Shown here: positions 2,469-43,081 of the stretch, one piece after another | How the letters are laid out: each line of letters opens with the position of its first letter | How positions within the stretch are numbered: position 1 is the first letter of the stretch | Source of the DNA: Clostridia bacterium | Lineage (GTDB): Bacteria; Bacillota; Clostridia; TANB77; CAG-508 | Length of the DNA stretch: 64,000 nt | Direction of reading: 5' to 3' | Assembly (NCBI GenBank): GCA_022791835.1 | Contig: JAAVZW010000027.1 | Span: forward strand, 10,112 to 74,111 | Program-made: the position numbers and the translations under genes | Notes under the pieces: generated by a model | The model's input: only the letters and a program-made list of their open reading frames with translations | Databases searched by the model: none | Told to the model about the DNA's origin: nothing

Positions 2469-3368
2469 TTAGTCTTTCATTTCGTTTTTGTCTAGCTGTT
2501 CTAGTTTTTTTAGTTCTTTTAGGTCACTATCTTCTAAGTCTTCGTCTGTTTCTTCTACATCTTTTATTATTTGTACGTCTTTTATATTGAATTTTTTTAT
2601 TTTTGTTTCGTCTTTTTGCACTATTTTTACTTTTAATAGTTCTTTTAATGTTTCTACACTCTCTACTGTGCCTTCTCCTTCTTCTGTTTTTACTATTGCT
2701 CCTACTTTTGGTAGTCTTGATAGTTTTTCTTCATATACTTCTTGTTCATATTTTAGGCAACACATTAGTCTTCCACATGCTCCTGATATTTTTGATGGGG
2801 TCAGTGACAGGTTCTGTTCTTTTGCCATTTTTATTGATACTGTTTCAAAGTTTGATAGGTGGGCACAACAACATAGTTCTCTACCACATATTCCACATCC
2901 GCCCATTCTTTTTATTTCGTCTCTTATGCCTATTTGTCTTAGTTCTATTCTTGTTTTGAAGATTGCTGCTAGGTCTTTTACTAGGTCTCTAAAGTCTATT
3001 CTTCCGTCGGCTGTGAAGTAAAATAGTACTTTGCTTCCATCAAATTTATATTCTACATTGATAAGGTTCATGTCTAATTTATGTTTTTTTATGTTTTTTA
3101 TTGCTATATCAAATGCTTCTTTTTCTTTCCTTTTGTTTTCTTCATAGTGTTTTTTATCTTTTGGAGTTGCTATCCTTTTGATTGGTTTTAGGGGTTGTAC
3201 TATTTTGTCTTCTGGCATTTCTTTGTTTGCAATGGCAACTTCTGCATATTCTTCTCCTAATGCTGTTTCTACTATTACAAAGTCTCCTACATTTAGTTTA
3301 TATTTGCCTGGGTCAAAATAGTATACTTTGCCTATTTTCTTTAATCTAACTCCTACTATTGTCTTCAT
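2469..3368 (-). CDS. ricT: PSP1-domain protein YaaT/RicT (stage 0 sporulation protein)
   Basis: 299 aa with GGCGICGRELCCCAHL and GACGRLMCCLKYE Cys motifs typical of PSP1/YaaT. Conserved holB-yaaT synteny. Confidence 0.8.
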   Translation of the reverse strand: MKTIVGVRLKKIGKVYYFDPGKYKLNVGDFVIVETALGEEYAEVAIANKEMPEDKIVQPLKPIKRIATPKDKKHYEENKRKEKEAFDIAIKNIKKHKLDMNLINVEYKFDGSKVLFYFTADGRIDFRDLVKDLAAIFKTRIELRQIGIRDEIKRMGGCGICGRELCCCAHLSNFETVSIKMAKEQNLSLTPSKISGACGRLMCCLKYEQEVYEEKLSRLPKVGAIVKTEEGEGTVESVETLKELLKVKIVQKDETKIKKFNIKDVQIIKDVEETDEDLEDSDLKELKKLEQLDKNEMKD

Positions 3369-4161: not shown

Positions 4162-4809
4162 TTAAACCTTTCCCATTTTGTTTAATGGCCAAAATCTTAT
4201 TAGTACTTTGCTTTCTACTTTTTCTACTGGTATACAACCAAATTCTCTACAATCTTGACTTTTGCCTCTGTTGTCTCCTACTGCAAATACATATCCTTCT
4301 GGTACTGTTAAATCGTAAAATAGCCCTGTTCTTTCTGTTTTTACTCCTTCTGGCAAGTATTCTTCTGGCAATTTTTCTCCATTTCTATATACTTCTCCAT
4401 TTTGTATTAGTATTTTATCTCCTTCTACTCCTATTACTCTTTTTATGTAACTATTTTTGCCTATTTCTAATACATAGTATATGAATTTTGAAAATATATT
4501 TTGGGGTTCATTTTTATATATTGCTACTGGATTGTTTGGGTCATATTGGGTTGAGTCTATTCTTCTTACTGATGGAGCTTCGAATGTTATTATATCTCCT
4601 ACTTCTAAATCTTTTTTTATTGTAATACTCCATCTATTTAGAAATAGTCTTTCTCCGTCTTTTAATGTTGGGTACATTGATTCTTGTTCTACTACTGTTG
4701 GAGTGCATATATAATGTCTTACTAAAAGTGCTAGTATTACTGCGATTAATATACATAGTATCCATTCTACTATTTCTTTTATATTATTCTTTTTTTCTAC
4801 TTCTTCCAT
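4162..4809 (-). CDS. lepB: signal peptidase I
   Basis: 215 aa, N-terminal TM, SMYPTLKDGERLF (catalytic Ser box) and GDNRGKSQDCREFG (box E). Confidence 0.85.
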   Translation of the reverse strand: MEEVEKKNNIKEIVEWILCILIAVILALLVRHYICTPTVVEQESMYPTLKDGERLFLNRWSITIKKDLEVGDIITFEAPSVRRIDSTQYDPNNPVAIYKNEPQNIFSKFIYYVLEIGKNSYIKRVIGVEGDKILIQNGEVYRNGEKLPEEYLPEGVKTERTGLFYDLTVPEGYVFAVGDNRGKSQDCREFGCIPVEKVESKVLIRFWPLNKMGKV

Positions 4810-6395: not shown

Positions 6396-7139
6396 TTATT
6401 CTGGCTTTGCGATATAGTATCCTACGCCTCTTTTGGTTACAAGTATTTGTGGGTTTGTAGTATCTTCTTCAATTTTTTCTCTTATTCTTCTAACTGTAAC
6501 ATCTACTGTTCTAATATCTCCAAAGTATTCATATCCCCATACTTTTTCTAGCAATAATTCTCTTGAGACTATTTGTCCTGGTTGTAATGCTAGATATTTT
6601 AGTGCTTCAAATTCTCTTACTGTTAAATCCACTTTTTCTCCTCTAACTCTTACTTCAAATCTATCTACATCTAGGCTTAAGTCTCCTACTTCTATTTTGT
6701 GATCTTCTTTCTTTTCTTTATTTTCTTGTATAACTGTTGGCACTTCTGATTTTCTAAGATTTGCTTTCACTCTTGCCATTAGTTCTCTAACGCTAAATGG
6801 TTTTGTAATATAGTCATCTGCACCAAGCTCTAGTCCTACAATTTTGTCTAGTTCTTCGTCTTTTGCTGATAGGATTAATATTGGTACATTTAATGCACTT
6901 TTAATTTTTTTGCAAGCTGTAAGCCCATCCATTTTTGGAAGCATGATGTCTAGTAAGATTAAATCTGGTTTTTTCTCTAGTGCTGTTTCTACAGCTGTTA
7001 CTCCATCATTTGCTTCTATTGTGTTATATCCTTCTTTTTTTAGATTGTATACTAGTATATCGATTATTGATTGTTCATCATCTACTATTAATATTGTTTT
7101 TTTGTCTTCATCATCAAACATAAATGCTCCGCCTTTCAT
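6396..7139 (-). CDS. OmpR-family response regulator (receiver + winged helix)
   Basis: ILIVDDEQSIIDIL...D receiver domain and C-terminal trans_reg_C. True start probably the internal ATG at 7121 (MFDDEDKK, preceded by AAAGGCGGAG). Confidence 0.85.
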   Translation of the reverse strand: MKGGAFMFDDEDKKTILIVDDEQSIIDILVYNLKKEGYNTIEANDGVTAVETALEKKPDLILLDIMLPKMDGLTACKKIKSALNVPILILSAKDEELDKIVGLELGADDYITKPFSVRELMARVKANLRKSEVPTVIQENKEKKEDHKIEVGDLSLDVDRFEVRVRGEKVDLTVREFEALKYLALQPGQIVSRELLLEKVWGYEYFGDIRTVDVTVRRIREKIEEDTTNPQILVTKRGVGYYIAKPE

Positions 7140-7240
7140 TTGAGACTTTATATCTACTTTATATCACAAATTTGAAATTAAAACAAGTATTTTTATGTTT
7201 TTTATGGTAGAATATTTTTTTATTTTAGTTTTATGTTAAA

Positions 7241-7511
7241 ATTTTCTACAATATTTAAATTATAACAAAATTATTGCTATTGCAAATCAAAAAGGTGGAG
7301 TATTAACATTCTAGAATACTTAAATTATAACTGTCCATATCGGTTACCAAGACTGGAGCTGTATATGCTTTACATTCTAAAATACTTAAATTATAACGCA
7401 TAATACTTGGTGGCGTTGGTATTTCCTTGTATATATTTACATTCTAAAATACTTAAATTATAACACACACACACAGATGTTTTAGAAGACGGAAAAAGCG
7501 ATTTACATTCT
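7241..7511 (-). CRISPR. CRISPR array, trailer-side part: 3 intact or near-intact repeats + 1 degenerate terminal repeat + 11-nt repeat stump; spacers S0-S3 of 35-38 nt
   Basis: Repeat (minus orientation) GTTATAATTTAAGTATTTTAGAATGTAAAT, 30 nt, I-B-like ...ATGTAAAT end. Plus-strand copies at 7302-7331 (2 mismatches), 7368-7397, 7435-7464, stump 7501-7511, decayed copy 7241-7266. Spacers are unique. Orientation matches the minus-strand cas operon. Confidence 0.85.
7501..7511. repeat. attL core ATTTACATTCT (direct repeat of 37257-37267; equals one end of the CRISPR repeat)
   Basis: Identical 11-mer at both prophage junctions. On the left it is preceded by spacer S3 and followed by phage DNA (ACTATATTGAAACC...). 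Confidence 0.7.
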
Positions 7512-7631
7512 ACTATATTGAAACCTTTTTCTCTAAAAATTCTATATATATTCTCACAAGCTACATTCGGCTTGTATCATAGTCCATGTTATTTTTCAAA
7601 GTTAATTTTCGATAACTCTAGATTGATTTTA

Positions 7632-7664
7632 TTAGTAACAAATTAGTAACAAATTAGTAACAAA
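7632..7664. repeat. 3 tandem copies of TTAGTAACAAA (putative integrase arm-type sites, attL side)
   Basis: ttagtaacaaa x3. The same TAGTAACAA motif occurs twice at 37181-37200 next to attR. Confidence 0.4.
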
Positions 7665-7693
7665 AAAATTTTTTAACTTTTTTCAAAAAAGTA

Positions 7694-7722
7694 TTGACAA
7701 TGACGTAACGTCGTGTTATAAT
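7694..7722 (+). promoter_or_regulatory. sigma-A promoter P1 (TTGACA-17-TATAAT) with embedded palindromic operator GACGTAACGTC
   Basis: ttgaca 7694-7699, tataat 7717-7722. 5-1-5 palindrome at 7702-7712 in the spacer. Near-identical copy at 8157-8185. Confidence 0.6.
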
Positions 7723-7753
7723 TAATTTATCCTAAGAGAGAGGAGGTAAACAA

Positions 7754-7873
7754 ATGATACTAAAGAAACTCTTTAAAAAACAAAAAGAGCCGACTTTCAT
7801 TCAGAAAGTCGACAAGTGGCAGACCGAAATGTACCTTTACAAACTTTCCCAAGAACGCAAAGTACTTAGATAA
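7754..7873 (+). CDS. hypothetical small protein, 39 aa (MILKKLFKKQKEPTFIQKVDKWQTEMYLYKLSQERKVLR)
   Basis: Strong RBS AGAGGAGGT 7 nt upstream, immediately downstream of P1. Hand-called (<60 aa). Confidence 0.4.
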   Translation: MILKKLFKKQKEPTFIQKVDKWQTEMYLYKLSQERKVLR

Positions 7874-7884
7874 GCCACTGAGTT

Positions 7885-7915
7885 GAGGAGCTAGCACTCC
7901 TCTTCTCTAATATTT
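7885..7915 (+). terminator. possible weak intrinsic terminator (GAGGAG-ctagca-CTCCTC + T-rich)
   Basis: 6-bp stem hairpin followed by ttctctaatattta. Confidence 0.25.
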
Positions 7916-7954
7916 ATATCATAAAATATTACAAAAAGCAAGATAGGAGGAAAA

Positions 7955-8137
7955 ATGGAAAAAAGAAATTTAAAAATAACATTCAACAAATCAGGCAGCG
8001 GAAGTATAACAAAAAGAATCACACTTCCTAGTAAATTTATTTCAGACATGGGCATAACAGAACAAGATAGAGATGTTGAATTGCTATATGACGAACAGCA
8101 TAAACAAATTATACTAAGAAAAGCTAAAAAAAATTAA
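7955..8137 (+). CDS. AbrB/MazE/SpoVT-family DNA-binding protein, 60 aa
   Basis: ...ITKRITLPSKFISDMGITEQDRDVELLYDE... resembles the swapped-hairpin AbrB/MazE fold. RBS TAGGAGG. Confidence 0.5.
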   Translation: MEKRNLKITFNKSGSGSITKRITLPSKFISDMGITEQDRDVELLYDEQHKQIILRKAKKN

Positions 8138-8156
8138 AAAATTTTGCAAAAAAGTA

Positions 8157-8185
8157 TTGACAACGACGTAACGTCATGTTATAAT
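8157..8185 (+). promoter_or_regulatory. sigma-A promoter P2 (TTGACA-17-TATAAT), near-identical duplicate of P1 with the same GACGTAACGTC operator
   Basis: caaaaaagtattgacaaCgacgtaacgtcAtgttataat; 36 of 38 nt identical to P1. Confidence 0.6.
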
Positions 8186-8245
8186 ATAATTACAGTAAGA
8201 GATAAGACGTTAGCAAATGCAACGCACTCTGAGAAGGAGATTGTT

Positions 8246-8617
8246 ATGAAAGAAGCAAAAAAATATGAAGGAAGAAAAATTTTAGTAAAAGTCGAATCTG
8301 GCGACAAAAATACTGATTATTCGAAAAAAATAAATATTGTGAGAAGCTTAGAAAGCTTTAAAAATGATGTAGAAAATGATATGTATACATCTGTTGAACT
8401 AATTGAAGACAACTTAACTTTATATCAATGCGATGTTAAAAAAACGAGCGATTTAGCAAAAATTCATGAAATTAGAAGTTGCTGGGCAAAAGGAAAATTT
8501 AATTATGATATTTTCTTAACTAAAAATGAAATCAAAGAGTTGCTTGAAAATGATGCTCTTGTAGCTATAAATGGGTTACAAGAAATTGAACTAGAAGATT
8601 TAGAAAAGTTGAGTTAG
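8246..8617 (+). CDS. hypothetical protein, 123 aa
   Basis: Start chosen at ATG 8246 (MKEAKKYEGRK...) with RBS GAGAAGGAGA. The upstream part of track ORF 8144..8617 overlaps promoter P2. No recognisable domain. Confidence 0.5.
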   Translation: MKEAKKYEGRKILVKVESGDKNTDYSKKINIVRSLESFKNDVENDMYTSVELIEDNLTLYQCDVKKTSDLAKIHEIRSCWAKGKFNYDIFLTKNEIKELLENDALVAINGLQEIELEDLEKLS

Positions 8618-8620
8618 TGT

Positions 8621-9040
8621 ATGAGAGGTTATAATATTGATGATTATGTCGGTCAGAAATTCGGCAATCTTACTTTAATAAAAAACTTGAACAAAACAAA
8701 TAAAAACAATTCAAAAATAGCTCTTTTCAAATGCGACTGTGGAAATGAAAAAGAAGCAGCATTCACTCAAGTACTACATAGAGAAGTTACAAGCTGCGGT
8801 TGCATGAATCGAGACAAAAATTCTAATTTAAGACTTCAAAGCGTTAGAGACAAAAGAATAGAATTTACGAGAAATCATACTCAAAAAAATAATAAAACTG
8901 GCTGTAATGGTGTTACATATGCAAACGGAAAATATAGAGCTAGAATACAAGTAAATGGTTCTAGTATACATCTTGGATATTTTGACACTTTTGATAAAGC
9001 TGTCGAAGTGCGAAAAAAAGCTGAGAAAAAATATTTTTAA
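8621..9040 (+). CDS. HNH-like zinc-finger / AP2-domain protein (phage-type)
   Basis: N-terminal Cys cluster CDCGNE...SCGC. C-terminal GVTYANGKYRARIQVNGSSIHLGYFDTFDKAVEVRKKAE is a classic AP2 domain. Confidence 0.55.
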   Translation: MRGYNIDDYVGQKFGNLTLIKNLNKTNKNNSKIALFKCDCGNEKEAAFTQVLHREVTSCGCMNRDKNSNLRLQSVRDKRIEFTRNHTQKNNKTGCNGVTYANGKYRARIQVNGSSIHLGYFDTFDKAVEVRKKAEKKYF

Positions 9041-9047
9041 AAAAATG

Positions 9048-9076
9048 TTGACAGACTTTAAATTTTATAGTATTAT
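9048..9076 (+). promoter_or_regulatory. promoter-like TTGACA-17-TATTAT
   Basis: ttgaca 9048-9053, tattat 9071-9076. It is followed ~40 nt later by a terminator, so the pair brackets a ~55-nt unit. Confidence 0.4.
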
Positions 9077-9084
9077 AATTATGC

Positions 9085-9142
9085 AGTTACTAATCAGGGT
9101 AATTTGCACGCGAGGCGTCGTAAGCGACAGCCTTTTTATTTT
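9085..9142 (+). ncRNA. candidate ~55-nt small RNA (promoter-to-terminator unit, no ORF)
   Basis: TSS predicted near 9085. Hairpin GGCGTCG-taag-CGACAGCC followed by TTTTTATTTT at 9114-9142. Confidence 0.3.
9114..9142 (+). terminator. rho-independent terminator
   Basis: GC-rich stem ggcgtcg/cgac(a)gcc + T tract. Confidence 0.55.
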
Positions 9143-9152
9143 ATAAAAATAA

Positions 9153-9184
9153 AGACTAGACTTAGCCCCCGCTTTGTCTAGTCT
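9153..9184 (-). terminator. terminator for the minus-strand gene 9235-9639
   Basis: 9-bp perfect stem AGACTAGAC...GTCTAGTCT, followed on the minus strand by TTATTTTTAT. Confidence 0.45.
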
Positions 9185-9234
9185 GAAGTTATATATCTAA
9201 CTTTATTTTATTATAACATAATTGGAATATTTTG

Positions 9235-9639
9235 TCAATTCTTCGTATAATATATATCTACAAATACATACATGGACGACCTATCCGCCTTAGACTCTAA
9301 ACATATCATATTGTTATTAATAAACACGCCTACTGTGCTATTGTCTGTGGGTGTTAAAGGTCTTGTAGAATTTAGCGGAATTGCAGATGTCTCTAATCTC
9401 ATTATTCCTTCTATTTTTTCGTATGTAACATTACTTAATCCCGTTTGCACAGATTTTATTACATTGTTAGGTCCACTGCCACAATCTATTCTTTTTCGAT
9501 ATATACGTTTTTTGTCAATATACTCATTTGTAGCACATTCAACGTTTGTTTCAATCTCTACTTGTTTAAGTTTTTCGTTTTCCGCCTTTAATTCTGCCAC
9601 TTTTTCTTTTAATTTCATTATTTCTTCTACAAATATCAT
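9235..9639 (-). CDS. tail-fibre-associated protein, paralogue A (coiled-coil N-terminus, conserved C-terminal domain ending FVDIYYTKN)
   Basis: 134 aa. Roughly half the positions match ORF 12502..12876, including identical ATNEYID, VDCG, NVTY, VGVFI and FVDIYYTKN blocks. The start codon overlaps the stop of an upstream (AC)18-containing leader ORF. Confidence 0.6.
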   Translation of the reverse strand: MIFVEEIMKLKEKVAELKAENEKLKQVEIETNVECATNEYIDKKRIYRKRIDCGSGPNNVIKSVQTGLSNVTYEKIEGIMRLETSAIPLNSTRPLTPTDNSTVGVFINNNMICLESKADRSSMYVFVDIYYTKN

Positions 9640-9652
9640 AGCGAGTTCACCC

Positions 9653-9716
<64 letters not shown>

Positions 9717-9765
9717 TTTTATGCTACTTACAGCATTTTTGTTCATTTTATTTTTACCTCCTATT

Positions 9766-10795
9766 TTAGATAATTTCTACTTGAATTGCGTCTATTTCTT
9801 GTCCGAATATACCTGCGTATCCGTTTGTTGGATCGTTTTCATTATACTGTGTTATCCAACCTAGCCATTTGCCATTTTTTGTATGTACTCTGTACTTTGC
9901 TGTTCCCTTTGTTGCTTTTATCATTATTCCGTCTATTGCTCTGCCTTTGATGCCTGCAAAATCGTCTCCGCTTCTGTCTTTTTCTCTGTCTATAATTTCT
10001 CCTAGCCATCTTCCGTTCTTTGTATGTACTTTATAGATAAGCTTTCCTACATCGGCTTCATTTCCGCACTGTATTACCTCTAAAAGCTGTTATAGCTTGT
10101 CCGTATATTCCTGCATAGTCTTGTGTATTTAATACGTCTTGTAGCCATTTATTCGTGCATGCTTGGTATTTTACATCTATCTTTCTTTTTTCTGTAACTG
10201 TATTTTCTACTGCTTCGGTTTTGTGTTCTTCTTTTTTCTCTATGTTCAAGTATGCTAGTATTCCGTCTGCTATTCCGCTTGCTACCTTTGTTGCGTATTC
10301 TTCTGTTAAAATTAGCGGTGTATCGTGTTCGTTATCCATAAAGCCACATTCTATTAAACATGCTTTCATTTTTGTATCACGTATTATAGCAAAGTTTTGT
10401 GTCTTTACTCCTCTATTTTTCATGCCTGTTGCTTCTACTGCTTTATTATTTATAATTGTTGCTAGCCTTCCAGTTTCTCCGTTCTTACAAGCCTCATTAT
10501 ATACATAAGTTTCTATTCCAGTGCCTCCACCAGCATTATGATGTATTGATACAACAGCTTCTACATTAGCATTATTAGCATTTCTACATCTTGTGTTCAA
10601 GTCTATATCTGTATTTCCTGTGATGTCGTCTAGTCTTATAGCCTCTATGCCTTCATAGCTATTAAGTATATTGCATACTTTTGTAGCTACTCTGTTATTA
10701 ATCACCCATTCCCTTGTTTCGTTTACGTCAAATTGTTTTGCACATCTTTTTCCTGCCGTGTGTAATCCATGTCCTGCGTCTATTCCTATTTTCAT
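9766..10795 (-). CDS. endolysin: N-acetylmuramoyl-L-alanine amidase (Amidase_3) + C-terminal ChW repeats; apparent +1 frameshift near 10058
   Basis: MKIGIDAGHGLHTAGKRC... amidase_3. After the in-frame TGA at 10058 the +1 frame continues ...YKVHTKNGRWLGEII...YRVHTKNGKWLGWIT...GYAGIFGQEIDAIQVEII* (two ChW repeats). Confidence 0.7.
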
Positions 10796-10855: not shown

Positions 10856-11404
10856 TTAATTTCCGCAACATTGTTTATATTTCTTCCCACTTCCACAAGG
10901 GCATGGGTCATTTCTTCCAATCTTTCGAGATACAGCTTGTTGCCTAGCTTTTAATTTTTGTACATAATCTGTACATTCAATAGATGGTATTCTAAAAGAA
11001 AAACATGTTTTTCCTTCATAATTAGATATTGCTAAATCCCCAAGGCCTATAACATCCATCCCTATCAATAAGTCTGAACCTTCAACTGCTGTGAATTCGG
11101 TTACTGCTACTGCTGGAATTCTTACTCTATTTGGTAATTCAATATCAACAATGTATGTATTAACATCTCTTTCTCCATTTGCAGTATTTATAGTTGCTTT
11201 TCCAGTTGGAATTAATCCACATTGTTCTACTACTTTGCTCGAAATTGCTGTGTCTGTTGCCCCTGTATCCCAAATAGCATTAAATTCTTCCTCTTTTGAT
11301 TCTTTGAATAATTCTTTATTTGCAGAAACCTTTACTTTGCTTAATAATACATTCGCCTTAGCTTGTGCTTTATAAGTAAATGCAGAAACGTGTATGTTAG
11401 CCAT
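10856..11404 (-). CDS. retropepsin-like (clan AA) aspartic protease fused to a C-terminal SEC-C zinc motif
   Basis: [12 protein letters not shown] (DTGA active-site loop), ...[12 protein letters not shown]-terminus [19 protein letters not shown] = SEC-C motif. The start overlaps the upstream gene by 8 nt. Confidence 0.6.
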
Positions 11405-11639
11405 TAAATCTTACCCTCGTATGAAATGTCTGTACTTTCTTTTTTTGTAGACATTCTTGTATGATGTATGTTCCTGCTTCTATATTTTTTGCGTTTTGAA
11501 TTGCTTCTTCTAAGGTTTTATATACCCCTATCACTTTTTCGTCTTTTATAATAACAAATTTGTTTTTGTGCTTTTTAAACAATTCTTCTTGATGTTCAGT
11601 ATAATATTTATAGTTTTTATCTATTTCCATACAAATCAC
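11397..11639 (-). CDS. small hypothetical protein, 80 aa, co-transcribed with the aspartic protease
   Basis: RBS AAGAGGTG. Own TTGACA-16-TATAAT promoter upstream. No confident domain assignment. Confidence 0.5.
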
Positions 11640-11686
11640 CTCTTTTATAGTATGAATATTTGTTAAAGAATTATTCTTATTTTACA

Positions 11687-11714
11687 ATTATATAATATTT
11701 TCTAAAAATGTCAA
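11687..11714 (-). promoter_or_regulatory. strong sigma-A promoter (TTGACA-16-TATAAT) for the moron operon 11639-10856
   Basis: Minus strand: ttgaca (11714-11709), tataat (11692-11687). Confidence 0.55.
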
Positions 11715-32827: not shown

Positions 32828-33193
32828 TTATATTTTTGCTATCTTTTCGACTTTTGCACATGCTAAAGCTAAAAACAAACTGTTTGTTATTTTATGCTTT
32901 GTATTAAAATATGTTTGTACATCTATTGATGTAGAAAGAACTGCCGTTCTTAAAGCTCTTTCTACTTGTGAATATGACACATTGTGCTTTATTGCTAATA
33001 CATTATAGACATCTTTCATAGCGTAAAGTTCACATTTGATTTTTTCTGCAACTACATATGTAATTGCTTCTGTCCATAGTTGAAAACCTTTTAAGTCTTT
33101 TTTCATGTCTACATCTTCTAATACTTTTCTTACTGCATCTTTAATAATCAAGCCTTGTGTTTTGTTCTTTACAAATTCTTTTGACTTCTCCAT
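32828..33193 (-). CDS. Spo0A C-terminal (DNA-binding) domain homologue, stand-alone
   Basis: KGFQLWTEAI...VYNVLAIKHNVSYSQVERALRTAV...ITNSLFLALA aligns with Spo0A_C KGYLYLREAI...[24 protein letters not shown]...PTNSEFIAMVA. Confidence 0.6.
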   Translation of the reverse strand: MEKSKEFVKNKTQGLIIKDAVRKVLEDVDMKKDLKGFQLWTEAITYVVAEKIKCELYAMKDVYNVLAIKHNVSYSQVERALRTAVLSTSIDVQTYFNTKHKITNSLFLALACAKVEKIAKI

Positions 33194-34841: not shown

Positions 34842-35243
34842 ATGGAGGGTAATTCTATGTTTCTAAATAAAAAAATTAAACAAGCTCGTCTTGAGAAAAA
34901 ACTTACTCAAAAGGAATTTGCTAATTTACTTACTAAAAATGGTTATAAAACAAGTCATGCTACTGTTTCTAATTGGGAATTGAATATCAGTAGCCCAGAC
35001 GTAGATACATTACAAATGATTTGCAATATTCTTGAAAAAGACGGCAATTATTTTTTTGATTTTACTAATACTACTTTAAACAAACAAGAAATACAAAATT
35101 ATTATGGTAGTTATTCAATAGAATTATTAGAAAATTATTCTTTGCTAAATGACCTAGGGAGGCTGAAAGCAATCGAAAATGTAAAGGATTTAACAAAAAT
35201 TAATGAATACACTGAAACAAAAAACAAACAACAAATCATATAG
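34842..35243 (+). CDS. cI-like XRE-family HTH repressor
   Basis: 133 aa, KIKQARLEKKLTQKEFANLL...HATVSNWE HTH_XRE. Divergent to cro. Start may be the ATG at 34857. Confidence 0.65.
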   Translation: MEGNSMFLNKKIKQARLEKKLTQKEFANLLTKNGYKTSHATVSNWELNISSPDVDTLQMICNILEKDGNYFFDFTNTTLNKQEIQNYYGSYSIELLENYSLLNDLGRLKAIENVKDLTKINEYTETKNKQQII

Positions 35244-35937: not shown

Positions 35938-37183
35938 ATGATTAAGAAAAAAAGAAAATATAAATATGGTAGTGTGGTGTATCTGGGAGAAAACCGTTCT
36001 CAACCATATATGGCTAGAGTAACACTTCGGATATAACAAAGGTGGTTATCCCGTCTATTTTTCATTAGGCTATTTTGAAGAAGAACTTGATGCATACATA
36101 TGCTTAAGAGACTTTAATAACAAACTATATGATTTGTATGTAAAAAAACAAGTATATGACAAAATAGACGTGTTCTCTACTTTGCCAGTTAAACTTTTTG
36201 TATCTGACGTCAAGCGAAAATACGAAGACGTTTCAACATACACATTCAAGCAAGTATATGAAGAATGGAAAAAAGTATATTTCCCCACAAAAGAAGAAAT
36301 CGAGGAGGAAAAAAGAACTCACAGGCGAACCCATGGCAAATTTTCTGTTGCAAATAAGGGCAATCTCGCTTCTGCTTTTAGCAATTGCAAGATTCTTCAT
36401 GATAGAATATACAGAGACTTAACTGACTTAGATTTTCAAGAAGTTATAAACAATACAAAACGGTTGTCGCAGTAAGCTCTACAATATACAAAATTTGTGT
36501 AAAAAACTAGATAAGTTTGCTTTGAGAAAAAAGATTATAGAAGAAGATTATGCAAAATTCATTGAGATTGACATTCAAGAAGACGAAACACATAGAAAGC
36601 CTTACACTTATGACGAAATCGCGTTCTTGTGGACCCTAAAAGGCAATATTTTAGTTGATATATTACTAGTGCTACTATATTCACGGCTTTAGAATAGAAG
36701 AATTGCTAGAGCTTGAAATAGTCAATATAGACTTAGAAAACGGAACAATGCTCGGAGGTCTTAAGACTGATAGCGGTAAGCATAGAATAGTACCTATTCA
36801 TTCTATGATACTGCACATTATACTACGATATTATGACAAAAAGAATAAGTATCTATTCACTGACAAGAACGGAAACAAAATCAAATACGATAAGTATTAT
36901 CAAGATTTTCTAAAATTCAAAAAAGAAAACAAAGAAAACTTTGATATTACACATGTTATTCACGAAACCAGGCATTCTGTTTGCTCTGATTTAGATAAAT
37001 ACGGAGCAAATAAGAAGTGTAGAGATATGATACTACGGACACAAAAGCAAAGAAGTTGGCGATAGAGTCTATAATCACAAAACAATAGAAGATTTAAAAA
37101 TTACTATTGAATTAATTACATATAAAGATACAAAAATTGTAAAATTCGATACACAAAAAACAGCTCTTGAAAAGTCTTCTTAG
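35938..37183 (+). CDS. int: tyrosine recombinase (phage integrase), fragmented by at least 4 apparent frameshifts
   Basis: Pieces: MIKKKRKYKYGSVVYLGENRSQPYMARVTL..., ...TFKQVYEEWKK..., ...LVDILLVLLYS/GFRIEELLELEIVNIDLENGTMLGGLKTDSGKHRIVPIH...HETRHS...ILGHKS...VGDRVYNHKTIEDL (R..HxxR..Y catalytic set), stop 37181-37183. Confidence 0.7.
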
Positions 37184-37200
37184 TAACAATCTAGTAACAA
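37181..37200. repeat. two TAGTAACAA arm-type-like repeats adjacent to attR
   Basis: tagtaacaa at 37181-37189 and 37192-37200; the same motif x3 occurs at 7632-7664. Confidence 0.4.
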
Positions 37201-37256
37201 ACGCAAATTTAAAATCGCTATAAGTACTGAAATATAGCGATTTTTCTGTTTTTAAA

Positions 37257-37267
37257 ATTTACATTCT
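37257..37267. repeat. attR core ATTTACATTCT
   Basis: Identical to 7501-7511. Here it is one end of a complete CRISPR repeat. Confidence 0.7.
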
Positions 37268-37286
37268 AAAATACTTAAATTATAAC
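37257..37286 (-). CRISPR. leader-proximal CRISPR repeat (single, complete) now separated from the rest of the array by the prophage
   Basis: atttacattctaaaatacttaaattataac is identical to repeats at 7435-7464. Followed on the minus strand by phage DNA, not a spacer. Confidence 0.8.
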
Positions 37287-37466: not shown

Positions 37467-39659
37467 TTATAGCATTCGTGTGTCTAAATCATATTCTTCG
37501 TCTCTTTTTAACAATAATCCAATTTCATTGTCATACTTTAGGTCTATTATTTCTATTTCGCTAATATATGGATTTGGAGATATGTATTCTTTCATTTTTC
37601 TATACTGTGCGTAGCTTATTGTTGTTGTTAGTTTATTTATTTTTCTTTTTAGTTTGTTTTTATTCTTGTACGTTATTTCTTCTTTATATGCTTGAAATAA
37701 GTCTATATTTTGATCATAGATTGTTTTTGGTATTACTGTTACATTATCTATGTTTCTTAGTAACTTTTGTGCTTCTGTTTTGTTTGTGTCATAATCTACT
37801 ATATTATCTAGAAATTCCATACCCGTTTTGAAAGTTTTTATAAATCTCGTGTTTTCTAGTGTTTCTTTTGAATATAATTTATCTACTAGTTTTATTTTAT
37901 CTGTTTCTTCTAGTATTTTGTTGTTGAATGGTAATAGTAGTTCTATACTTTTTTGATTTATTTCTTCATCATATATATGTCCTATTCCTGTTGCTTCTTT
38001 TGTATAAATGTATACATTGGATTCTTCTTTTTTATATTCTCTGTTTCTGTAGCATCTTCCCATTCTTTGAAAAATGCTGTCTAACGTTGACATTTCTGTG
38101 TATAGGTAGTCAAAGTCTATGTCTAACGAGGCTTCTACTATTTGTGTTGTTATCCATATACCTCTTTTTTCTTGATTTTTTGAGAATTCTTTTATCTTTT
38201 CTTCTTTTTGATTTCTGTCTTTTCCTATAAATCTAGAATGTAATAGTTTTACATTGTCTGCTTGTTTTTCTTTTAGTTCTGAATATAACTCTATTGCTTT
38301 ATTTACAGTATTACATATGACTAATACTTTATTATTTTTGCTTTTTTCTTTTATTTGATCTATTTCTTCTTTTATGTTTTTTTCTTTTATTTGGATTTTA
38401 TGCCTTTGTACGTTTTTTATAAATTCATTGTATTTAAATTGTATTCCCATTTTTTCTAGTTCTTCTTTATAAATTCTTGGTAATGTGGCTGTCATTACCA
38501 TAAATTTTCCACCTAACTTATGTATCATTTGTAAGCCTTTTAGTATAACTGCTACTATTTCTGGAGAGTATGCTTGTATTTCGTCTATAATTATTTTCGA
38601 ATAACTAAGGGTTGCATATATTTTTTCATAGCCTTTATACTTAAAAACGAATGGGAATATTTGATCTATTGTGCATGTTGTTATCTTTTCTGATAGGTTT
38701 CTTGATTGTTCATATATTTGTAGTCCTAAGGATAGTTCATCTTTTTCTTCTAGGTAATCTAATGCTGTTCCATGTAATAATCCTACATGTTCATAATTCA
38801 TACCCTCTCGTATTCTGTCAAATATTGCGTTTATGCTTATTCTTATTGGTAATGTGAAAAAAGTTTTGCTATTTTTACTCCATAATAGGGCTGATTCTGT
38901 TTTTCCTATTCCAGTCGAACCTATGACTAATAAATTATTATCTTGATTTTGTTTACTGAATTCTTGTATGTCTCTTAGCTGATATCCTTTGCTTTTTATT
39001 TGGTTTCCTACTACCTCTCCTATTTCTTCATTTGTTTCGTCCTCTACCTTGATATTCGCAGAGCTACTATGGTCTAATCTATGTAATAATCCTTTGAGCA
39101 GGCAATATTCTTCATATTGCCTGTCCTTTTTTGATATTCGGTCTCTTTTTCCGCTTCCTATATACATTAGATACATTGAATTAGGATGTTTTTCGATTTC
39201 TATACCTATTTCTTTCTCTATTTGTTCTGCTTGTGGAAGTATGTCTGTTTTGATTATTTCTTCTACTAATTTACTATCTACTGGCACTTTTTCTCTTTCA
39301 TGGTGATAGAAAATAACTTGATATATTAATCTCTTTTCTTCTTTACTTAAATTAAATTTTTGTGTTGGTATGAAAAGAGGAGAAAGTTCTTCATGTCTAG
39401 CTATTTCATAGCTAAATTTAGTGGATAAGGTTTCTTTTCCTAATTTTTTTCTTATTTCGTTTTGAAAAGGTGTGTATACTTTTCCTATGTCATGGTATGT
39501 ACATATTATTTTTAATAAGTCCCAAAATCTTTCTTTTTCTATGTTTTTTCCTTTTAAAATTTCTTCGCCATATGTGTTTTTTAGTATTTCTAAGTTTTTT
39601 AATAATGCTTTTGTATGTTCTTCTACTGTTTGCTCAGGTTTAGATTTTGCATAATACAT
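37467..39659 (-). CDS. cas3: Cas3 (HD nuclease + DExH helicase)
   Basis: HD motif ...ICTYHDIGKV..., Walker A GSTGIGKTES, helicase motifs. Start placed at ATG 39659 (RBS AGGAG); the track ORF extends to 39698 and would overlap cas5. Confidence 0.85.
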   Translation of the reverse strand: MYYAKSKPEQTVEEHTKALLKNLEILKNTYGEEILKGKNIEKERFWDLLKIICTYHDIGKVYTPFQNEIRKKLGKETLSTKFSYEIARHEELSPLFIPTQKFNLSKEEKRLIYQVIFYHHEREKVPVDSKLVEEIIKTDILPQAEQIEKEIGIEIEKHPNSMYLMYIGSGKRDRISKKDRQYEEYCLLKGLLHRLDHSSSANIKVEDETNEEIGEVVGNQIKSKGYQLRDIQEFSKQNQDNNLLVIGSTGIGKTESALLWSKNSKTFFTLPIRISINAIFDRIREGMNYEHVGLLHGTALDYLEEKDELSLGLQIYEQSRNLSEKITTCTIDQIFPFVFKYKGYEKIYATLSYSKIIIDEIQAYSPEIVAVILKGLQMIHKLGGKFMVMTATLPRIYKEELEKMGIQFKYNEFIKNVQRHKIQIKEKNIKEEIDQIKEKSKNNKVLVICNTVNKAIELYSELKEKQADNVKLLHSRFIGKDRNQKEEKIKEFSKNQEKRGIWITTQIVEASLDIDFDYLYTEMSTLDSIFQRMGRCYRNREYKKEESNVYIYTKEATGIGHIYDEEINQKSIELLLPFNNKILEETDKIKLVDKLYSKETLENTRFIKTFKTGMEFLDNIVDYDTNKTEAQKLLRNIDNVTVIPKTIYDQNIDLFQAYKEEITYKNKNKLKRKINKLTTTISYAQYRKMKEYISPNPYISEIEIIDLKYDNEIGLLLKRDEEYDLDTRML

Positions 39660-39660
39660 T

Positions 39661-40316
39661 TTAATACTCCTTTTCATAGAAAAATACGTAGTCTCCATCT
39701 TGGTCTCTCAACACTTGCTCTATTCCTTGGTTTGTATGTCTTTCTATATATTTCACATTGACTTTATCCCATTTTCTGAGGTTATTTATTATTTGATATT
39801 TAGTGTTTAATCTATATTGTATTCCACTAATTTCATTGCTCAAATGCTCTGGTACATATGCGTTGTACTCGTTTATCATTCCTCCTGATAATTCAGGTTT
39901 TTGAATGATTTTTACCTCATCTACTCTTACCATATCTTCGTTTCTTCCTAGTGTAAAAGTTTCTTTTCCTGTTACGATGTTTTCATATATTTTTTCTATT
40001 ATCTCATCTTCTGCTTGTACGTGGATAATAAGTTCTATATTTAGTAATTGGTGTACATTTCTTGGCATTGATGTCACTTGGTCTTTTCCTTTAAACATTC
40101 TTAAGTTTTGATAGTTAGAAAATATACTTTCATATTTGCCTTGTATGGAGATATTCATTTTAAAATATTCTCCGAAATTTAGCTCCTAGAATTTTGTGAA
40201 GCATTCCTATTACTGTTGAATATGGTGGCAAAGGATAGGTTTCTGCTACTTTGAAGGCAAATGGCTTTTTGTAGCAGGCTGTTTCTTGAAATAGTTTCAT
40301 TTTTAAATATTTCATT
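39661..40316 (-). CDS. cas5: Cas5 (type I-B), apparent 1-nt frameshift near 40172
   Basis: N-terminal 57 aa MKYLKMKLFQETACYKKPFAFKVAETYPLPPYSTVIGMLHKILGAKF in one frame, the rest (track ORF 39661..40158) in another. One extra G in ...TTTCGG(G)AGAA restores AKFRGEYFKMNISIQGK. Confidence 0.7.
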
Positions 40317-40329
40317 TCTCCCATCCTTT

Positions 40330-41232
40330 CTATTTACAATAGTACTCCTCTACTTGCTTCTCTAAGTTTTCAAAAAATTCTTGTACAGATGTTACTTTTC
40401 CTTCAAAAATTTCTTCTATTTCTTTTTCATTTTTGAAAGTATCTTTTACTATTCCTATTTTTGTATCGTTATATATAGAATTTTCTCCTACTTTTAGACT
40501 TAGTGTGTCTTTTAACATATTTGTATTTATTGTAAATTCTTTGTTTCTTCCTTCTAGTTTGATTCTTCCTAAGAAGAATGGCGAATTTAGGTCATAAATT
40601 CCTCCTATTACAAATAGTGGACTTAGGTTTTCTTCTCTTCCTCTTATTTCTCTATTTAATACTTTTATTATTTCTAATAATTCTTTTACTCTTTTGTTTC
40701 TAATGTTATTGTCCATTGTTAATTCACCATCTACTCCTACTTTTGATAGGTCTATTGTTACTGTGTATGTATAGTAGCTTAAATGTTGTTCTATGTTTGC
40801 TAGGTTTGGGAATTCGTTTATTCTATCTGCTAGTCCTTTGTTGTTTAAGAAGTCCATATCACTTTTATAATCTTCTAAGGAAATTGCATTACTTAGTCTT
40901 ACTGCTGCGCTTCTAATTAGTGACGCTCCTTCTTCTTTTTTTGCTGTTTTCATGTATCCAAATAAATCCATTTCTTCTGAATCTTCTATTGTTAATTCGT
41001 CTTTGAATTGTACTGTACCTTTTGATTTGTCTACTACTTCCAAATTCCATCCAAATAGTTTATTTCCTATCCTTGCTATATCATATCTTAGTGCTTGTCT
41101 TGATGCAAATGTGTATACACTTCCATCTCCTCTTGTTAATTTTTTTAGTTCTGATATATTTCCTATCCCTTCTCCATAGTTTAGGCTTTGTGCTTTGAAA
41201 ATCATTGTTATTGTTAATCCATTTTTATTCAT
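40330..41232 (-). CDS. cas7: Cas7 (Csh2/Cst2, type I-B backbone)
   Basis: 300 aa, MNKNGLTITMIFKAQSLNYGEGIGNISELKKLTRGDG...FASRQALRYDI typical Cas7 N-terminus. Confidence 0.8.
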   Translation of the reverse strand: MNKNGLTITMIFKAQSLNYGEGIGNISELKKLTRGDGSVYTFASRQALRYDIARIGNKLFGWNLEVVDKSKGTVQFKDELTIEDSEEMDLFGYMKTAKKEEGASLIRSAAVRLSNAISLEDYKSDMDFLNNKGLADRINEFPNLANIEQHLSYYTYTVTIDLSKVGVDGELTMDNNIRNKRVKELLEIIKVLNREIRGREENLSPLFVIGGIYDLNSPFFLGRIKLEGRNKEFTINTNMLKDTLSLKVGENSIYNDTKIGIVKDTFKNEKEIEEIFEGKVTSVQEFFENLEKQVEEYYCK

Positions 41233-43063
41233 TTACTTGTTCCTCCTCTTTTTTATTTGATATTAGTCCTGCTAGAAAGCTTTGTCCTATTGCTTCATAT
41301 CCTAAGCTTGTGTCTTTCATTATTTCTATGAATATTGGTGAGACATCTTTTTCTAATGACATATGTATTCTTATAATCGTATCCATTAGCTCTTGCTTAT
41401 TTCCTACTCTAATAGCATTTAGCATTTTATATGTGTATCCATTTAATTTGTTTTCTTCTTTTTTTGCTTTAAGTGTTGCATGTATATCTAGTCCTAAATT
41501 GTATAGTACACTTAGCTTTGCGTTATTTTTCTTTATCTCTTCTTCCATTTTATTTTCCTCCTTTTTTAATAAATTTAAAGTTGCTCTTATTTTTGTTCCT
41601 AAATATGAATAATATCCAAACGGACTGTCTTTCTTTATTTCTTCTAACAGCCTGTCATTTATTACGTATTTAATATCTTTGTTTTTTAGAATACTGTCTA
41701 CTATTTGTAGTTTGTAGCCATAATCTTTGATTTTACTAAGCATTGTGTTTGCATACTCTATGAAAAAACGTGCTACATATCTTTTTATGTTAAAGTACTG
41801 CATTCTGCTGTATGCTCCATATTCTGTTTCAAATTCTACTACAAATATATTTTGTAGTTGCCATTCGCTGATTTCTTTATTTTCTTCTACTATATTTAGG
41901 ATTAAATCAGTATATGGATTTTCCATGTTTTTATCTTTTTTAGATTTTTCACTAAAGTAATTATTAGTCCTTAGCAGTTCTTCTATGCTCATATCATCAT
42001 TTACAAAACTTAGTATTTCTTTTTCTTTGTAAATGCTTTTCCCTTTGTCTTGTTCTTTGACTATTTTTGATATTGTTGTAATTCCTGCTGGTATACAGAA
42101 TAGTATTAATTTGCATATATCACATACTGGAAATTCTGCGTTTTGGTTCCAGAAGAAATTTTTCATATTATCACTGCTAATTGCTAAAGGTGCAAAATTA
42201 CTTTCTGAGTAATTACCTGTAATTGTATGTTCGTTTTCGCACATATAACAAATTGTAAATACTTTATTTTGCAGATATTCTTTTATTTCTTCAAGGCTTT
42301 TGTTTCTTTCTATAAACTTTTTATTTAAATTATTGTATATCTGTTGTACTTCTTTTGTTAGAAGTTCACTATTTGTTTTTTGTATATGTTCTTTTATTTC
42401 TTCTATTGTGTATTTATTTTCTGTAATGTCTTGCATAAAATCTAATTCTATTATATTACTAATATAGTCTTTGTACATTACTTCTTGTTGCTCTTCATAT
42501 GATAGCGCTGTTTTTACTACGTTTAAAAAACTTGGCTGGCCAAAGTAGTTTTTGCTTAATATGCTTTTGAAAAAGTTCATTGTGATTCTTTTATTTATTT
42601 CGTCTTTTTGAATTTCCTTTTTTATATTTTCTTGTATTGTTTTTAGTTCTTCTTTTTCTTCTGCTTTTTCAATTTTATCGTATTCTTCTAATATATTTGA
42701 ATAGATTTCTTCATTTATTTTTTTGATTTTGTCTAGTTGTGATTTTATTATTGCTTTTATGTATTTCTTTTCTTTTTTTATTTTTTCTTTAATTTCTTTT
42801 TCGTTTGCGTTCTCTTGGCTTAAATAGTTTTTTATTTTTTCGAATGATGTATCTATTCTGCTTGATACTCTTTCTGCTACATTGTATGTGTCAAAAAAGT
42901 ATTTGAAATAGTTTTGGTGGAAATTTTTTAAGTCTTTTGTATCAAATTCTATGTAGTTATCTTGCATTTTTGCAAAGTTTTTGTCATTATGTTTTAGTAT
43001 TCTTAAGAATCCGATAATACCTGCATTATAGAACCACTCTCTTGCATATATTCTTGTTTTCAA
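41225..43063 (-). CDS. cas8b: Cas8b (Csh1/Cst1 large subunit, type I-B)
   Basis: 612 aa, N-terminal WFYNAGIIGFLRIL motif, position between cas6 and cas7. Confidence 0.7.
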   Translation of the reverse strand: MKTRIYAREWFYNAGIIGFLRILKHNDKNFAKMQDNYIEFDTKDLKNFHQNYFKYFFDTYNVAERVSSRIDTSFEKIKNYLSQENANEKEIKEKIKKEKKYIKAIIKSQLDKIKKINEEIYSNILEEYDKIEKAEEKEELKTIQENIKKEIQKDEINKRITMNFFKSILSKNYFGQPSFLNVVKTALSYEEQQEVMYKDYISNIIELDFMQDITENKYTIEEIKEHIQKTNSELLTKEVQQIYNNLNKKFIERNKSLEEIKEYLQNKVFTICYMCENEHTITGNYSESNFAPLAISSDNMKNFFWNQNAEFPVCDICKLILFCIPAGITTISKIVKEQDKGKSIYKEKEILSFVNDDMSIEELLRTNNYFSEKSKKDKNMENPYTDLILNIVEENKEISEWQLQNIFVVEFETEYGAYSRMQYFNIKRYVARFFIEYANTMLSKIKDYGYKLQIVDSILKNKDIKYVINDRLLEEIKKDSPFGYYSYLGTKIRATLNLLKKEENKMEEEIKKNNAKLSVLYNLGLDIHATLKAKKEENKLNGYTYKMLNAIRVGNKQELMDTIIRIHMSLEKDVSPIFIEIMKDTSLGYEAIGQSFLAGLISNKKEEEQVNE

Positions 43064-43081
43064 GTTTTTGCCTCCTTGCTT

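Follow-up and report, generated by a model that had tools for sequence, protein, structure and literature searches.

The locus considered here raises the question of why the end of a prophage should carry two near-identical promoters on either side of a very small gene, and of which protein reads the palindrome that is placed inside each of them. It lies in a 64,000-nt stretch of contig JAAVZW010000027.1 (hereafter the window), which is part of a Clostridia metagenome-assembled genome. The prophage occupies ∼29.7 kb of the window, from roughly 7513 to 37256, and the locus, referred to below as the cassette, is the first element inside its left end and is transcribed toward the convergent lysis genes. 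An earlier sequence-only reading had put the cassette forward as a candidate immunity or anti-CRISPR locus (Acr; CRISPR denotes short palindromic repeats that are clustered and regularly interspaced). The present analysis indicates instead that it is likely to be a self-contained and negatively autoregulated expression cassette, in which a 60-amino acid (aa) AbrB-like repressor would act at both operators.

Both promoters comprise consensus TTGACA and TATAAT hexamers separated by a 17-nt spacer, with a TG-extended -10 element. P1 is located at 7694-7722 on the + strand (-35 at 7694-7699, -10 at 7717-7722), whereas P2, on the same strand, is located at 8157-8185 (-35 at 8157-8162, -10 at 8180-8185), beginning 20 nt past the stop codon of the gene for the 60-aa regulator. 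Each scores 12/12 against the sigma-70/sigma-A consensus, their status as promoters being predicted from sequence, and the two near-identical perfect promoters with a spacer palindrome described in the sequence-only reading are therefore confirmed at these sites. The extent of the repeated elements required some correction, since both are present but the second is in register from 8154 as opposed to 8153, and the duplication is larger than was described, comprising 94 nt (7663-7756 versus 8126-8219) with 79% identity. The duplicated block extends from an A-rich upstream tract into the first bases to be transcribed, and its cores (7685-7724 and 8148-8187) are identical at 36 of 40 positions; P1 and P2 are paralogous copies. 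The part of the block that precedes P1 (7663-7693, + strand) is an A/T-rich, UP-like region, and a ttttttgaaaaaagta tract also precedes the promoters of related cassettes. The palindrome, GACGT-A-ACGTC, spans 11 bp, with two 5-nt arms and one central base, and provides the core GACGTAACGTC of operators O1 (7700-7714, core at 7702-7712) and O2 (8163-8177, core at 8165-8175), which lie within the P1 and P2 spacers, respectively, and are not assigned to a strand. With up to one mismatch allowed, GACGTAACGTC occurs in the whole window just at O1 and O2; counted strand-wise this represents four matches versus 0.19 expected, a number that none of 100 shuffles reached, and allowing two mismatches revealed no additional promoter-located site in the window. 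Perfect TTGACA-N16-18-TATAAT promoters number six in the window versus 0.2 expected, the G+C content being 29%.

The same arrangement is found in other phages. The AbrB-type lineages examined numbered eight, including the window (the others being L005, L011/13, L017, L020, L025, L026 and L030), and were mostly derived from gut metagenomes, with regulators that are 61-71% identical to that of the window over the aligned length. In all eight, exactly two consensus promoters flank the regulator gene, one operator-promoter being upstream and the other immediately downstream, with RACGT-W-ACGTY in each spacer. This holds despite differences in cargo, in lysins (Amidase_2, Amidase_3, GH25 or C39-like) and in integrases, the recombinases being of the tyrosine or serine type. 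The position of the cassette is likewise constant, between the endolysin and the integrase/lysogeny genes or att end of a temperate phage, and it is next to the lysis module in the window and in all related loci. The order of elements is P1 with its operator, a small basic open reading frame (ORF), a hairpin, the regulator, P2 with its operator, and then one to three unrelated small proteins, mostly acidic (isoelectric point, pI, of 4.1-5.4 for most), usually with a Zn-ribbon/AP2 protein, which is of 139-198 aa and present in six of the eight lineages. The anatomy of the cassette and its conservation across lineages are established by these comparisons. The palindrome, previously interpreted as the operator of a dimeric repressor, is very probably an operator for a small dimeric repressor, as its retention in all eight lineages suggests, and the conserved unit of the putative operator is RACGT-W-ACGTY. 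Swapped outer flanks (AT..GT versus AC..AT), which had been taken as the hallmark of such an operator, are real in the window pair but were observed in none of the seven related lineages and have no such diagnostic value. Scans with operator-promoter patterns found few loci (one viral, five genomic and one metagenomic), among them L023, which is a CRISPR spacer and not a cassette, and a blastn search with 7500-9800 against 50,697 phage records returned no match.

The identity of the protein that reads the operator is indicated by lineages in which a different gene stands between the two promoters. L035 and L037 encode 60%-identical homologues of the 123-aa cargo protein of the window, with the same small-ORF family and AP2 homologues; an unrelated basic protein of 54-56 aa (54-60 aa over the alternative-regulator cassettes as a whole) stands in place of the AbrB-like gene, and both promoters carry another palindrome (ATACGTGTACACGTAT in L035 and TACnGTGTACnGTA in L037). 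L049-53 represent an alternative-regulator lineage with TACGTGTACACGTA in the promoters, an AP2 homologue and a different acidic cargo. The TACGTGTACACGTA-type palindrome was located at both promoters in L035, L037 and L053, with L049-52 yielding P1 alone. No family match was obtained for the alternative regulator, HicB_lk_antitox (E-value, E, of 0.088) being the sole hint of a ribbon-helix-helix protein. The N-terminal part of the L037 AP2 protein is the closest relative of that in the window, yet its operator is of the other type; the GACGT operators are present in L005 and L030, from which the AP2 gene is absent. Palindrome geometry also tracks the regulator subfamily, in that 'SITKR' proteins are associated with GACGT-W-ACGTC in the spacer and 'F/YTPR' proteins (phiCD38-2 gp31 and L042) with TGACG-N3-CGTCA overlapping the -35 hexamer, and for most of the more distant AbrB-like relatives, too, the promoter in front of the gene has an ACGT-type palindrome of a related kind. 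These comparisons establish that regulator and operator co-vary. Since the operator changes with the middle regulator while the cargo and AP2 homologues stay, its most likely reader is the protein whose gene lies between the promoters, and not the AP2 protein or the cI-like repressor of the prophage, and the 60-aa AbrB-like protein is the best candidate for this function in the window.

The 60-aa protein (7955-8137, + strand), which is the proposed repressor, can be described as AbrB/MazE/SpoVT-like on the basis of four lines of evidence that are weak but concordant. First, the NCBI name for an identical protein places it in the AbrB/MazE/SpoVT family. Secondly, it resembles Pfam MazE_antitoxin (PF04014) with an E of 0.026 and 14.9 bits, below the gathering cut-off of 24.7. 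Thirdly, a PDB profile search aligns residues 21-59 with residues 15-50 of AbrB, with weak E-values of 0.85-1.6. Finally, in a Foldseek search against the PDB, nine of the top ten matches were to the SpoVT/AbrB superfamily (AbrB-N, Sso7c4, MazE and SpoVT among them), again weakly (E 0.12-0.9, template modelling (TM) score of ∼0.5), using an AlphaFold monomer with a predicted local distance difference test score (pLDDT) of 70.8 in which the N-terminal strands or hairpin are unmodelled. The protein also matches phrog_2329 (E 7e-22), which has no functional annotation, and a HMMER scan returned 466 representative clusters at E≤1e-3, many of ∼60 aa and some with tandem duplications. No helix-turn-helix (HTH) match was found for it in Pfam or NCBIfam.

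Between P1 and the regulator gene lies the small basic ORF (7754-7873, + strand), which encodes a 39-aa peptide with a pI of 10.1 and has a GGAGG ribosome-binding site. Equivalent basic ORFs of 30-43 aa with ribosome-binding sites occur in nine lineages, including those with the alternative regulator, and are missing from L017 and L030. Coding support is modest, with 44% of changed codons being synonymous in the most divergent comparison; the synonymous changes, together with the retention of ORF and ribosome-binding site in nine lineages, suggest that the small ORF is probably a real gene. Its possible role in a type I toxin-antitoxin system was considered and rejected, because the peptide is basic as opposed to hydrophobic and because the antisense elements (a terminator-like hairpin at 7813-7789 on the - strand and a possible antisense promoter near 7925-7950, for which L005 has a perfect one) are not conserved between lineages. 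Just past the stop codon of the small ORF is a hairpin, GAGGAG-CTAGCA-CTCCTC (7885-7902, + strand), and a GAGAGGG/CCCTCTC hairpin is present at the equivalent position in every lineage. In the relatives, the 3' arm of this hairpin overlaps an internal TTGCAT-17-TATAAT promoter that is followed by AAATCAAGGAGG. The internal promoter is degenerate in the window, so that the regulator there probably relies on read-through from P1.

In the scheme that we propose, the 60-aa protein, as a dimer that is probably of the swapped-hairpin type, would bind GACGT-A-ACGTC between the -35 and -10 hexamers and thereby block RNA polymerase. Occupancy of P1 would shut off the 39-aa ORF and the repressor's own gene, giving a negative feedback loop, and occupancy of P2 would shut off, or set the level of, the cargo operon that encodes the 123-aa acidic protein and the 139-aa Zn-ribbon/AP2 protein. 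Because P1 and P2 are near-ideal (consensus hexamers, 17-nt spacing, TG extension and upstream A-tract), they should be very strong when unrepressed, and strong, immediate expression of the cargo would be expected in a cell that is without the repressor. A phage genome entering such a cell would accordingly produce a burst of cargo protein that is then clamped to low, steady expression, including in the lysogen. DNA binding, repression by the AbrB-like protein and burst-then-clamp kinetics are what we infer from the arrangement of genes and sites. Several observations weigh against this scheme. Each of the fold assignments for the 60-aa protein is sub-threshold when taken alone (Pfam, Foldseek with a best E of 0.12, and a model with a pLDDT of 71); the internal promoter in front of the regulator in related cassettes means that autoregulation at P1 may be just part of its expression; and the small ORF and hairpin have as yet no place in the scheme. 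Additionally, phage phiCDHM13 has a similar promoter pair, with AACGT-AA-ACGTT, that has no AbrB-like gene between its members, indicating that another protein (the AP2 protein gp27 or the product of a divergent small ORF, possibly HTH) can read a similar motif.

The first gene of the P2 operon (8246-8617, + strand) encodes the 123-aa acidic cargo protein, which has a pI of 5.0 and 14 homologues. Its structural model is of high quality (pLDDT 92.7, predicted TM score 0.83); searches of the PDB and BFVD revealed no significant fold match, the top matches to Cas9 fragments having a TM score of ∼0.25 and being meaningless, and there was no PDB sequence match and no family in Pfam, NCBIfam or PADLOC. 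The second gene (8621-9040, + strand) encodes the 139-aa protein with Zn-ribbon and AP2 DNA-binding domains, a homologue of phiCDHM13 gp27, with which it shares 34% identity over 85% of its length (with small databases, E 6e-15 by tblastn and otherwise 1e-16 to 4e-20; with the set of all phages, E 3e-5); this homology is established. On its own the 139-aa protein has no Pfam match, but its homologues match AP2 (PF00847) with E-values of 9e-6 and 3e-5, and the family profile finds two structures of the AP2/ERF type, 7wq5 (E 1.2e-7) and 7et4 (E 0.014). While the ORFs of 39, 60, 123 and 139 aa are all present as originally called, the last shows no sign of the HNH nuclease that had been attributed to it. 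No HNH domain was found in the protein or its homologues with Pfam, and no nuclease was present among the PDB profile matches; the best-scoring PHROG 'HNH endonuclease' matches cover internal, non-N-terminal segments of far longer profiles (193-256 of 617, for example), and the label is, as judged by these matches, an annotation carry-over. The cassette proteins matched nothing in PADLOC or NCBIfam, and none of the cargo proteins is similar to AcrIB2, to a solved Acr structure in the PDB or to a defence family in PADLOC. Less firmly, we infer that the cargo slot is exchangeable and most likely holds accessory or host-interaction genes, an anti-defence function being the leading guess. The operon probably terminates at a hairpin followed by a T-run (9112-9143, + strand, folding z = -3.07). 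The interval that separates the AP2 gene from the late operon also has two short, convergent transcription units. On the + strand, within 9048-9145, TTGACA-17-TATTAT precedes a 55-nt RNA with two hairpins (z = -3.1), and on the - strand, at 9238-9135, an RNA of 65 nt that has a strong terminator hairpin (z = -5.7) follows a perfect TTGACA-17-TATAAT. Neither RNA has a match in Rfam, which returned nothing at gathering thresholds in the whole window and a single chance match at E≤1 in 7100-9800.

The alternative that survives best is that the cassette is a true anti-CRISPR locus, in which the 123-aa (or 39-aa) product inhibits the type I-B Cascade/Cas3 machinery, the AbrB-like and/or AP2 proteins serve as anti-CRISPR-associated (Aca) repressors, and the inhibitor allows the lysogen to tolerate a self-targeting spacer. 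A suitable target is present, as the host has a cas6-cas8b-cas7-cas5-cas3 operon (37467-43804, with cas3 at 37467-39698 on the - strand); cas1, cas2 and cas4 were not found among the scanned genes adjacent to it. In this respect it resembles the interference-only 'partial' operon, which is the active one in C. difficile according to PMC10732046. The perfect match of a spacer (7465-7500) to the prophage (9653-9688), as reported in the sequence-only reading, is correct, and the 5' flank of the protospacer in the CRISPR RNA (crRNA) sense is CCC, which fits the YCN protospacer adjacent motif of the C. difficile I-B system (PMC8406132), although that of the host itself may differ. (A (TG)n run of ∼18 units at 9680-9715, which could be slippage-prone, abuts and partly overlaps the protospacer; it lies within a 36-aa - strand ORF, 9636-9746, 'HTHTHT...', and this ORF in turn overlaps another at 9235-9639, which is coiled-coil-like and 134 aa long, at the start of the latter.) The cargo is variable, small and acidic across lineages, and the AP2 protein, a homologue of the gp27 that serves as marker for the AcrIB2 locus (PMC10732046), occupies the same place beside the lysin.

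Two further loci connect such cassettes with type I-B arrays. In L023, a spacer of an I-B array from an uncultured Clostridia genome (1083-1119) is the reverse complement of a cassette promoter-operator, TTGACAAGGACGTTACGTCCGTATATAAT, indicating that hosts acquire spacers against this element. In L054 (1563-2653 and 2751-3503; also L055 and L056), an alternative-regulator cassette is situated ∼100 nt past the last repeat of a cas4-cas1-cas2-linked I-B array. It consists of a small ORF, the regulator and an 83-aa cargo gene, with degenerate promoters and no other phage genes nearby; the arrays have 17, at least 39 and at least two repeats in the three samples, and, relative to the repeat, this cassette points the other way from the one in the window.

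Self-targeting can, however, be accounted for without an inhibitor. The attL core ATTTACATTCTA (7501-7512) and the adjoining 7513-7519 make up the 19 nt in which the phage copies a type I-B repeat, namely its 3' part. The apparent 'degenerate repeat' at 7501-7525 matches the host repeat only in its first 12 nt, and the 19-nt AATATAGTAGAATGTAAAT (crRNA sense) agrees at 19 of 19 positions with the 3' portion of I-B repeats from L054 and L023; the phage attP thus appears to mimic part of an I-B CRISPR repeat. At the other prophage end, a perfect CRISPR repeat (37257-37286) is found 180 nt downstream of cas3, with a promoter-like site in the 180-nt leader (37378-37350, - strand), and the remaining spacers are 30 kb away from this leader-side repeat. 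The best reading of these features is that the prophage sits in the leader-proximal CRISPR repeat. The strand of the array was assigned from where the cas genes lie, from the degeneracy of the repeat at the far end and, in part, from an orientation of Clostridial I-B repeats that we presume to be the usual one. Insertion at this position would probably deprive the self-targeting spacer both of the leader promoter and of the upstream repeat on which Cas6 processing depends. The spacer may therefore be silenced by the insertion, in which case an Acr is unnecessary to explain the lysogen, and the earlier argument that lysogeny requires CRISPR interference to be off is weakened. Searches of IMG/VR gave no matches for the excised attP junction or for the protospacers of the other two spacers.

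Other evidence also speaks against the anti-CRISPR account. Nothing in the window resembles AcrIB2, the 123-aa model has no match among solved or predicted viral structures, and the regulator family also drives ParA partition operons. Moreover, gp26, which is upstream of the AP2 gene as is the 123-aa gene, and gp27 are described in PMC10732046 as having no Acr activity when assayed. The Acr-Aca architecture perceived in the sequence-only reading is recognisable in the strong promoter, the apparent autorepression, the variable acidic genes, the location at a prophage end and the AP2 marker; what is missing is any match to AcrIB2 or to a defence family. An anti-CRISPR function of the cassette is hence plausible, while the account in full, with its inhibitor, its Aca repressors and its tolerated spacer, seems unlikely.

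A second alternative retains two operators but has them read by a different protein, namely the AP2 protein, the cI-like repressor of the prophage or a host factor. The AP2 domain is a DNA-binding domain, and the AP2 protein was proposed as an Aca in PMC10732046; indeed, the ACGT-palindrome promoters of phiCDHM13 flank gp26-gp27 without an AbrB-like gene. Against this, the operator switches with the middle regulator while AP2 homologues stay, as in L037, L005 and L030 have the operator without AP2, and sites of the phiCDHM13 type occur in the window at chance level only. The cI-like HTH protein (34842-35243) faces a region with three TTCAAA-N-TTTGAA operators, forming a cI/cro-type switch at 34.3-35.3 kb whose operators are unrelated to those of the cassette. 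We consider it very improbable, therefore, that any of these proteins is the reader in place of the AbrB-like repressor. The presence of that switch elsewhere, with its own operators, also led to rejection of the interpretation of the cassette as the immunity region. In phiCDHM13 (L034) itself, an unannotated small ORF on the - strand, possibly HTH, is located at ∼3020-3230 between the amidase and gp26, and corresponds to the 69-aa JD032_27 in JD032.

A type II toxin-antitoxin system, with an AbrB/MazE-like antitoxin and a downstream toxin that stabilises the prophage, is suggested by the weak MazE_antitoxin and PHROG 'antitoxin' matches, by homologues in other phages labelled PemI or SymE and by palindrome-based autoregulation, which is typical of antitoxins, but is most improbable, given that a full promoter, P2, separates the regulator from the downstream genes, that these genes are wholly different between lineages and without a toxin-family match, that the same cargo also occurs with an unrelated regulator, and that those downstream in phiCD38-2 are ParA partition genes.

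The remainder of the prophage carries structural genes on the - strand and, 1 kb downstream of the cassette and in convergent orientation to it, an amidase gene (10058-10795, - strand). Three tandem ATTAGTAACAA(A) repeats (7631-7664, + strand), 30 nt upstream of P1, are probably arm-type integrase sites; two copies of TAGTAACAA are present near attR, at about 37183-37203, and TAGTAACAA repeats flank both prophage ends. No tRNA genes were found as att sites. The tyrosine integrase gene (about 35939-37065) is broken into pieces in at least four reading frames, so that the prophage may be excision-defective, unless the assembly contains frameshift errors. A second accessory module lies between the lysin and the tail genes, where a perfect promoter at 11714 (- strand) precedes genes for a DUF5678 protein of 80 aa and for a retropepsin-like aspartyl protease of 182 aa that has a SEC-C motif (10856-11714), the SEC-C end having weak PADLOC matches (PDC-S12, E2). 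Finally, a 121-aa prophage protein (32828-33193, - strand) matches the C-terminal DNA-binding domain of Spo0A (E 2e-10), and could permit interference with sporulation control in the host.

The cassette has some bearing on the search for anti-defence genes. Neighbourhood searches rely on HTH-type Aca genes, whereas here the same logic would be served by another repressor fold, for which a second, unrelated repressor can stand in, and by a two-promoter design; a consensus promoter with a spacer palindrome on both sides of a ∼60-aa gene could serve as a mining signature for Clostridia phages. The literature surveyed contains one validated type I-B inhibitor from C. difficile phages, and the link with AcrIB2 marks the variable acidic proteins, the 123-aa protein first, as testable candidates. 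In the most far-reaching case, the 123-aa protein would be a new I-B inhibitor, and the AbrB-like protein and its substitute would be the first non-HTH Aca-type repressors, exchangeable with their operators, in a widespread anti-defence locus of gut Clostridia phages. We regard this as rather unlikely; if true, the same phage would pair the cassette with CRISPR-repeat integration as a second anti-CRISPR strategy. The repressor-operator pairs are also potentially orthogonal and very compact switches for Clostridia genetics. Conversely, caution is warranted in that an Acr cannot be deduced from a self-targeting spacer alone, because insertion in a CRISPR repeat may suffice to silence it.

Among known systems, the closest counterpart comes from C. 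difficile phages, namely their AcrIB2 locus (phiCDHM13 gp26-gp29 and phiCD38-2 gp27; Muzyukina et al. 2023), which, according to PMC10732046, was found via the AP2 protein gp27 beside the amidase. Like the cassette, it is located directly beyond the endolysin, and it shares the homologous AP2 protein and small acidic proteins, gp26 being weakly similar to the L017 cargo. In phiCDHM13, AACGT-AA-ACGTT also occupies the spacers of two promoters of near-identical sequence (3298-3326 and 4467-4495), one before gp26-gp27 and the other before the split acrIB2, a pair that is not mentioned in the passages of PMC10732046 concerned. The cassette differs in having no homologue of AcrIB2 (phiCD38-2 gp27; best match in the window E 4.1), in the sequence of its operator, in the AbrB-like gene that stands between its promoters, and in the placement of the AP2 gene downstream of P2 as opposed to between the promoters. 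The AbrB-like homologues in these phages (phiCD38-2 gp31 and JD032_20, 44% identical) head the neighbouring, convergent ParA partition operon, where the gene comes after a 42-aa ORF and a palindrome-bearing promoter. Since a homologue heads such an operon, the regulator is not an Acr-specific marker; it is better viewed as a putative portable, general-purpose switch for varied cargo. In phiCD38-2 (L033, 3545-4174), gp32, which is 42 aa long and contains a hydrophobic segment, and the AbrB-like gp31 lie behind a promoter with TGACGACCCGTCA, before an iteron-rich region and the ParA operon, and the module may regulate partition of the plasmid-prophage.

With regard to the site of integration, Varble et al. 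in 2021 (doi 10.1038/s41564-021-00996-8, as cited in PMC10651486) reportedly described prophage integration into CRISPR loci in Streptococcus pyogenes. The window prophage is similar in being placed in a CRISPR repeat by the leader, with an attP that copies part of the repeat; the system in the window is, however, a type I-B system in Clostridia, whereas the streptococcal one is of type II-A. The 60-aa protein resembles AbrB/MazE/SpoVT proteins in size, probable fold and proposed role as a dimeric repressor, and differs from them in being a stand-alone protein of 60 aa without a toxin partner that scores below the Pfam threshold. AbrB has loose sequence specificity, whereas the 60-aa protein is paired with a sharply defined 11-bp palindrome in the promoter spacer.

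Finally, the cassette can be compared with Acr-Aca operons (Aca1, Aca2 and Aca11/13, and the self-repressing AcrIIA15 and AcrIF24), with which it shares a strong promoter whose operator is an inverted repeat, a locus-encoded small repressor and variable small acidic genes beside a conserved regulator (PMC9410906, PMC8633003, PMC12282945, PMC10901769, PMC9001735). Repression of strong acr promoters by Aca proteins is an established logic that matches the design proposed for the cassette (PMC9410906, PMC8633003). Aca families are described as HTH proteins (PMC9410906), and Aca genes are located downstream of acr in one operon; the regulator in the window, in contrast, is AbrB-like (or, in other lineages, the unrelated 54-60-aa protein), is upstream of the cargo and stands between two operator-promoter copies. 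With no HTH regulator predicted and no validated Acr, the locus falls outside the classical definition of an Aca system. It is, rather, an accessory locus of an Aca-like kind, probably autoregulated, in which non-HTH repressors are exchangeable together with their operators and the promoter is present twice.

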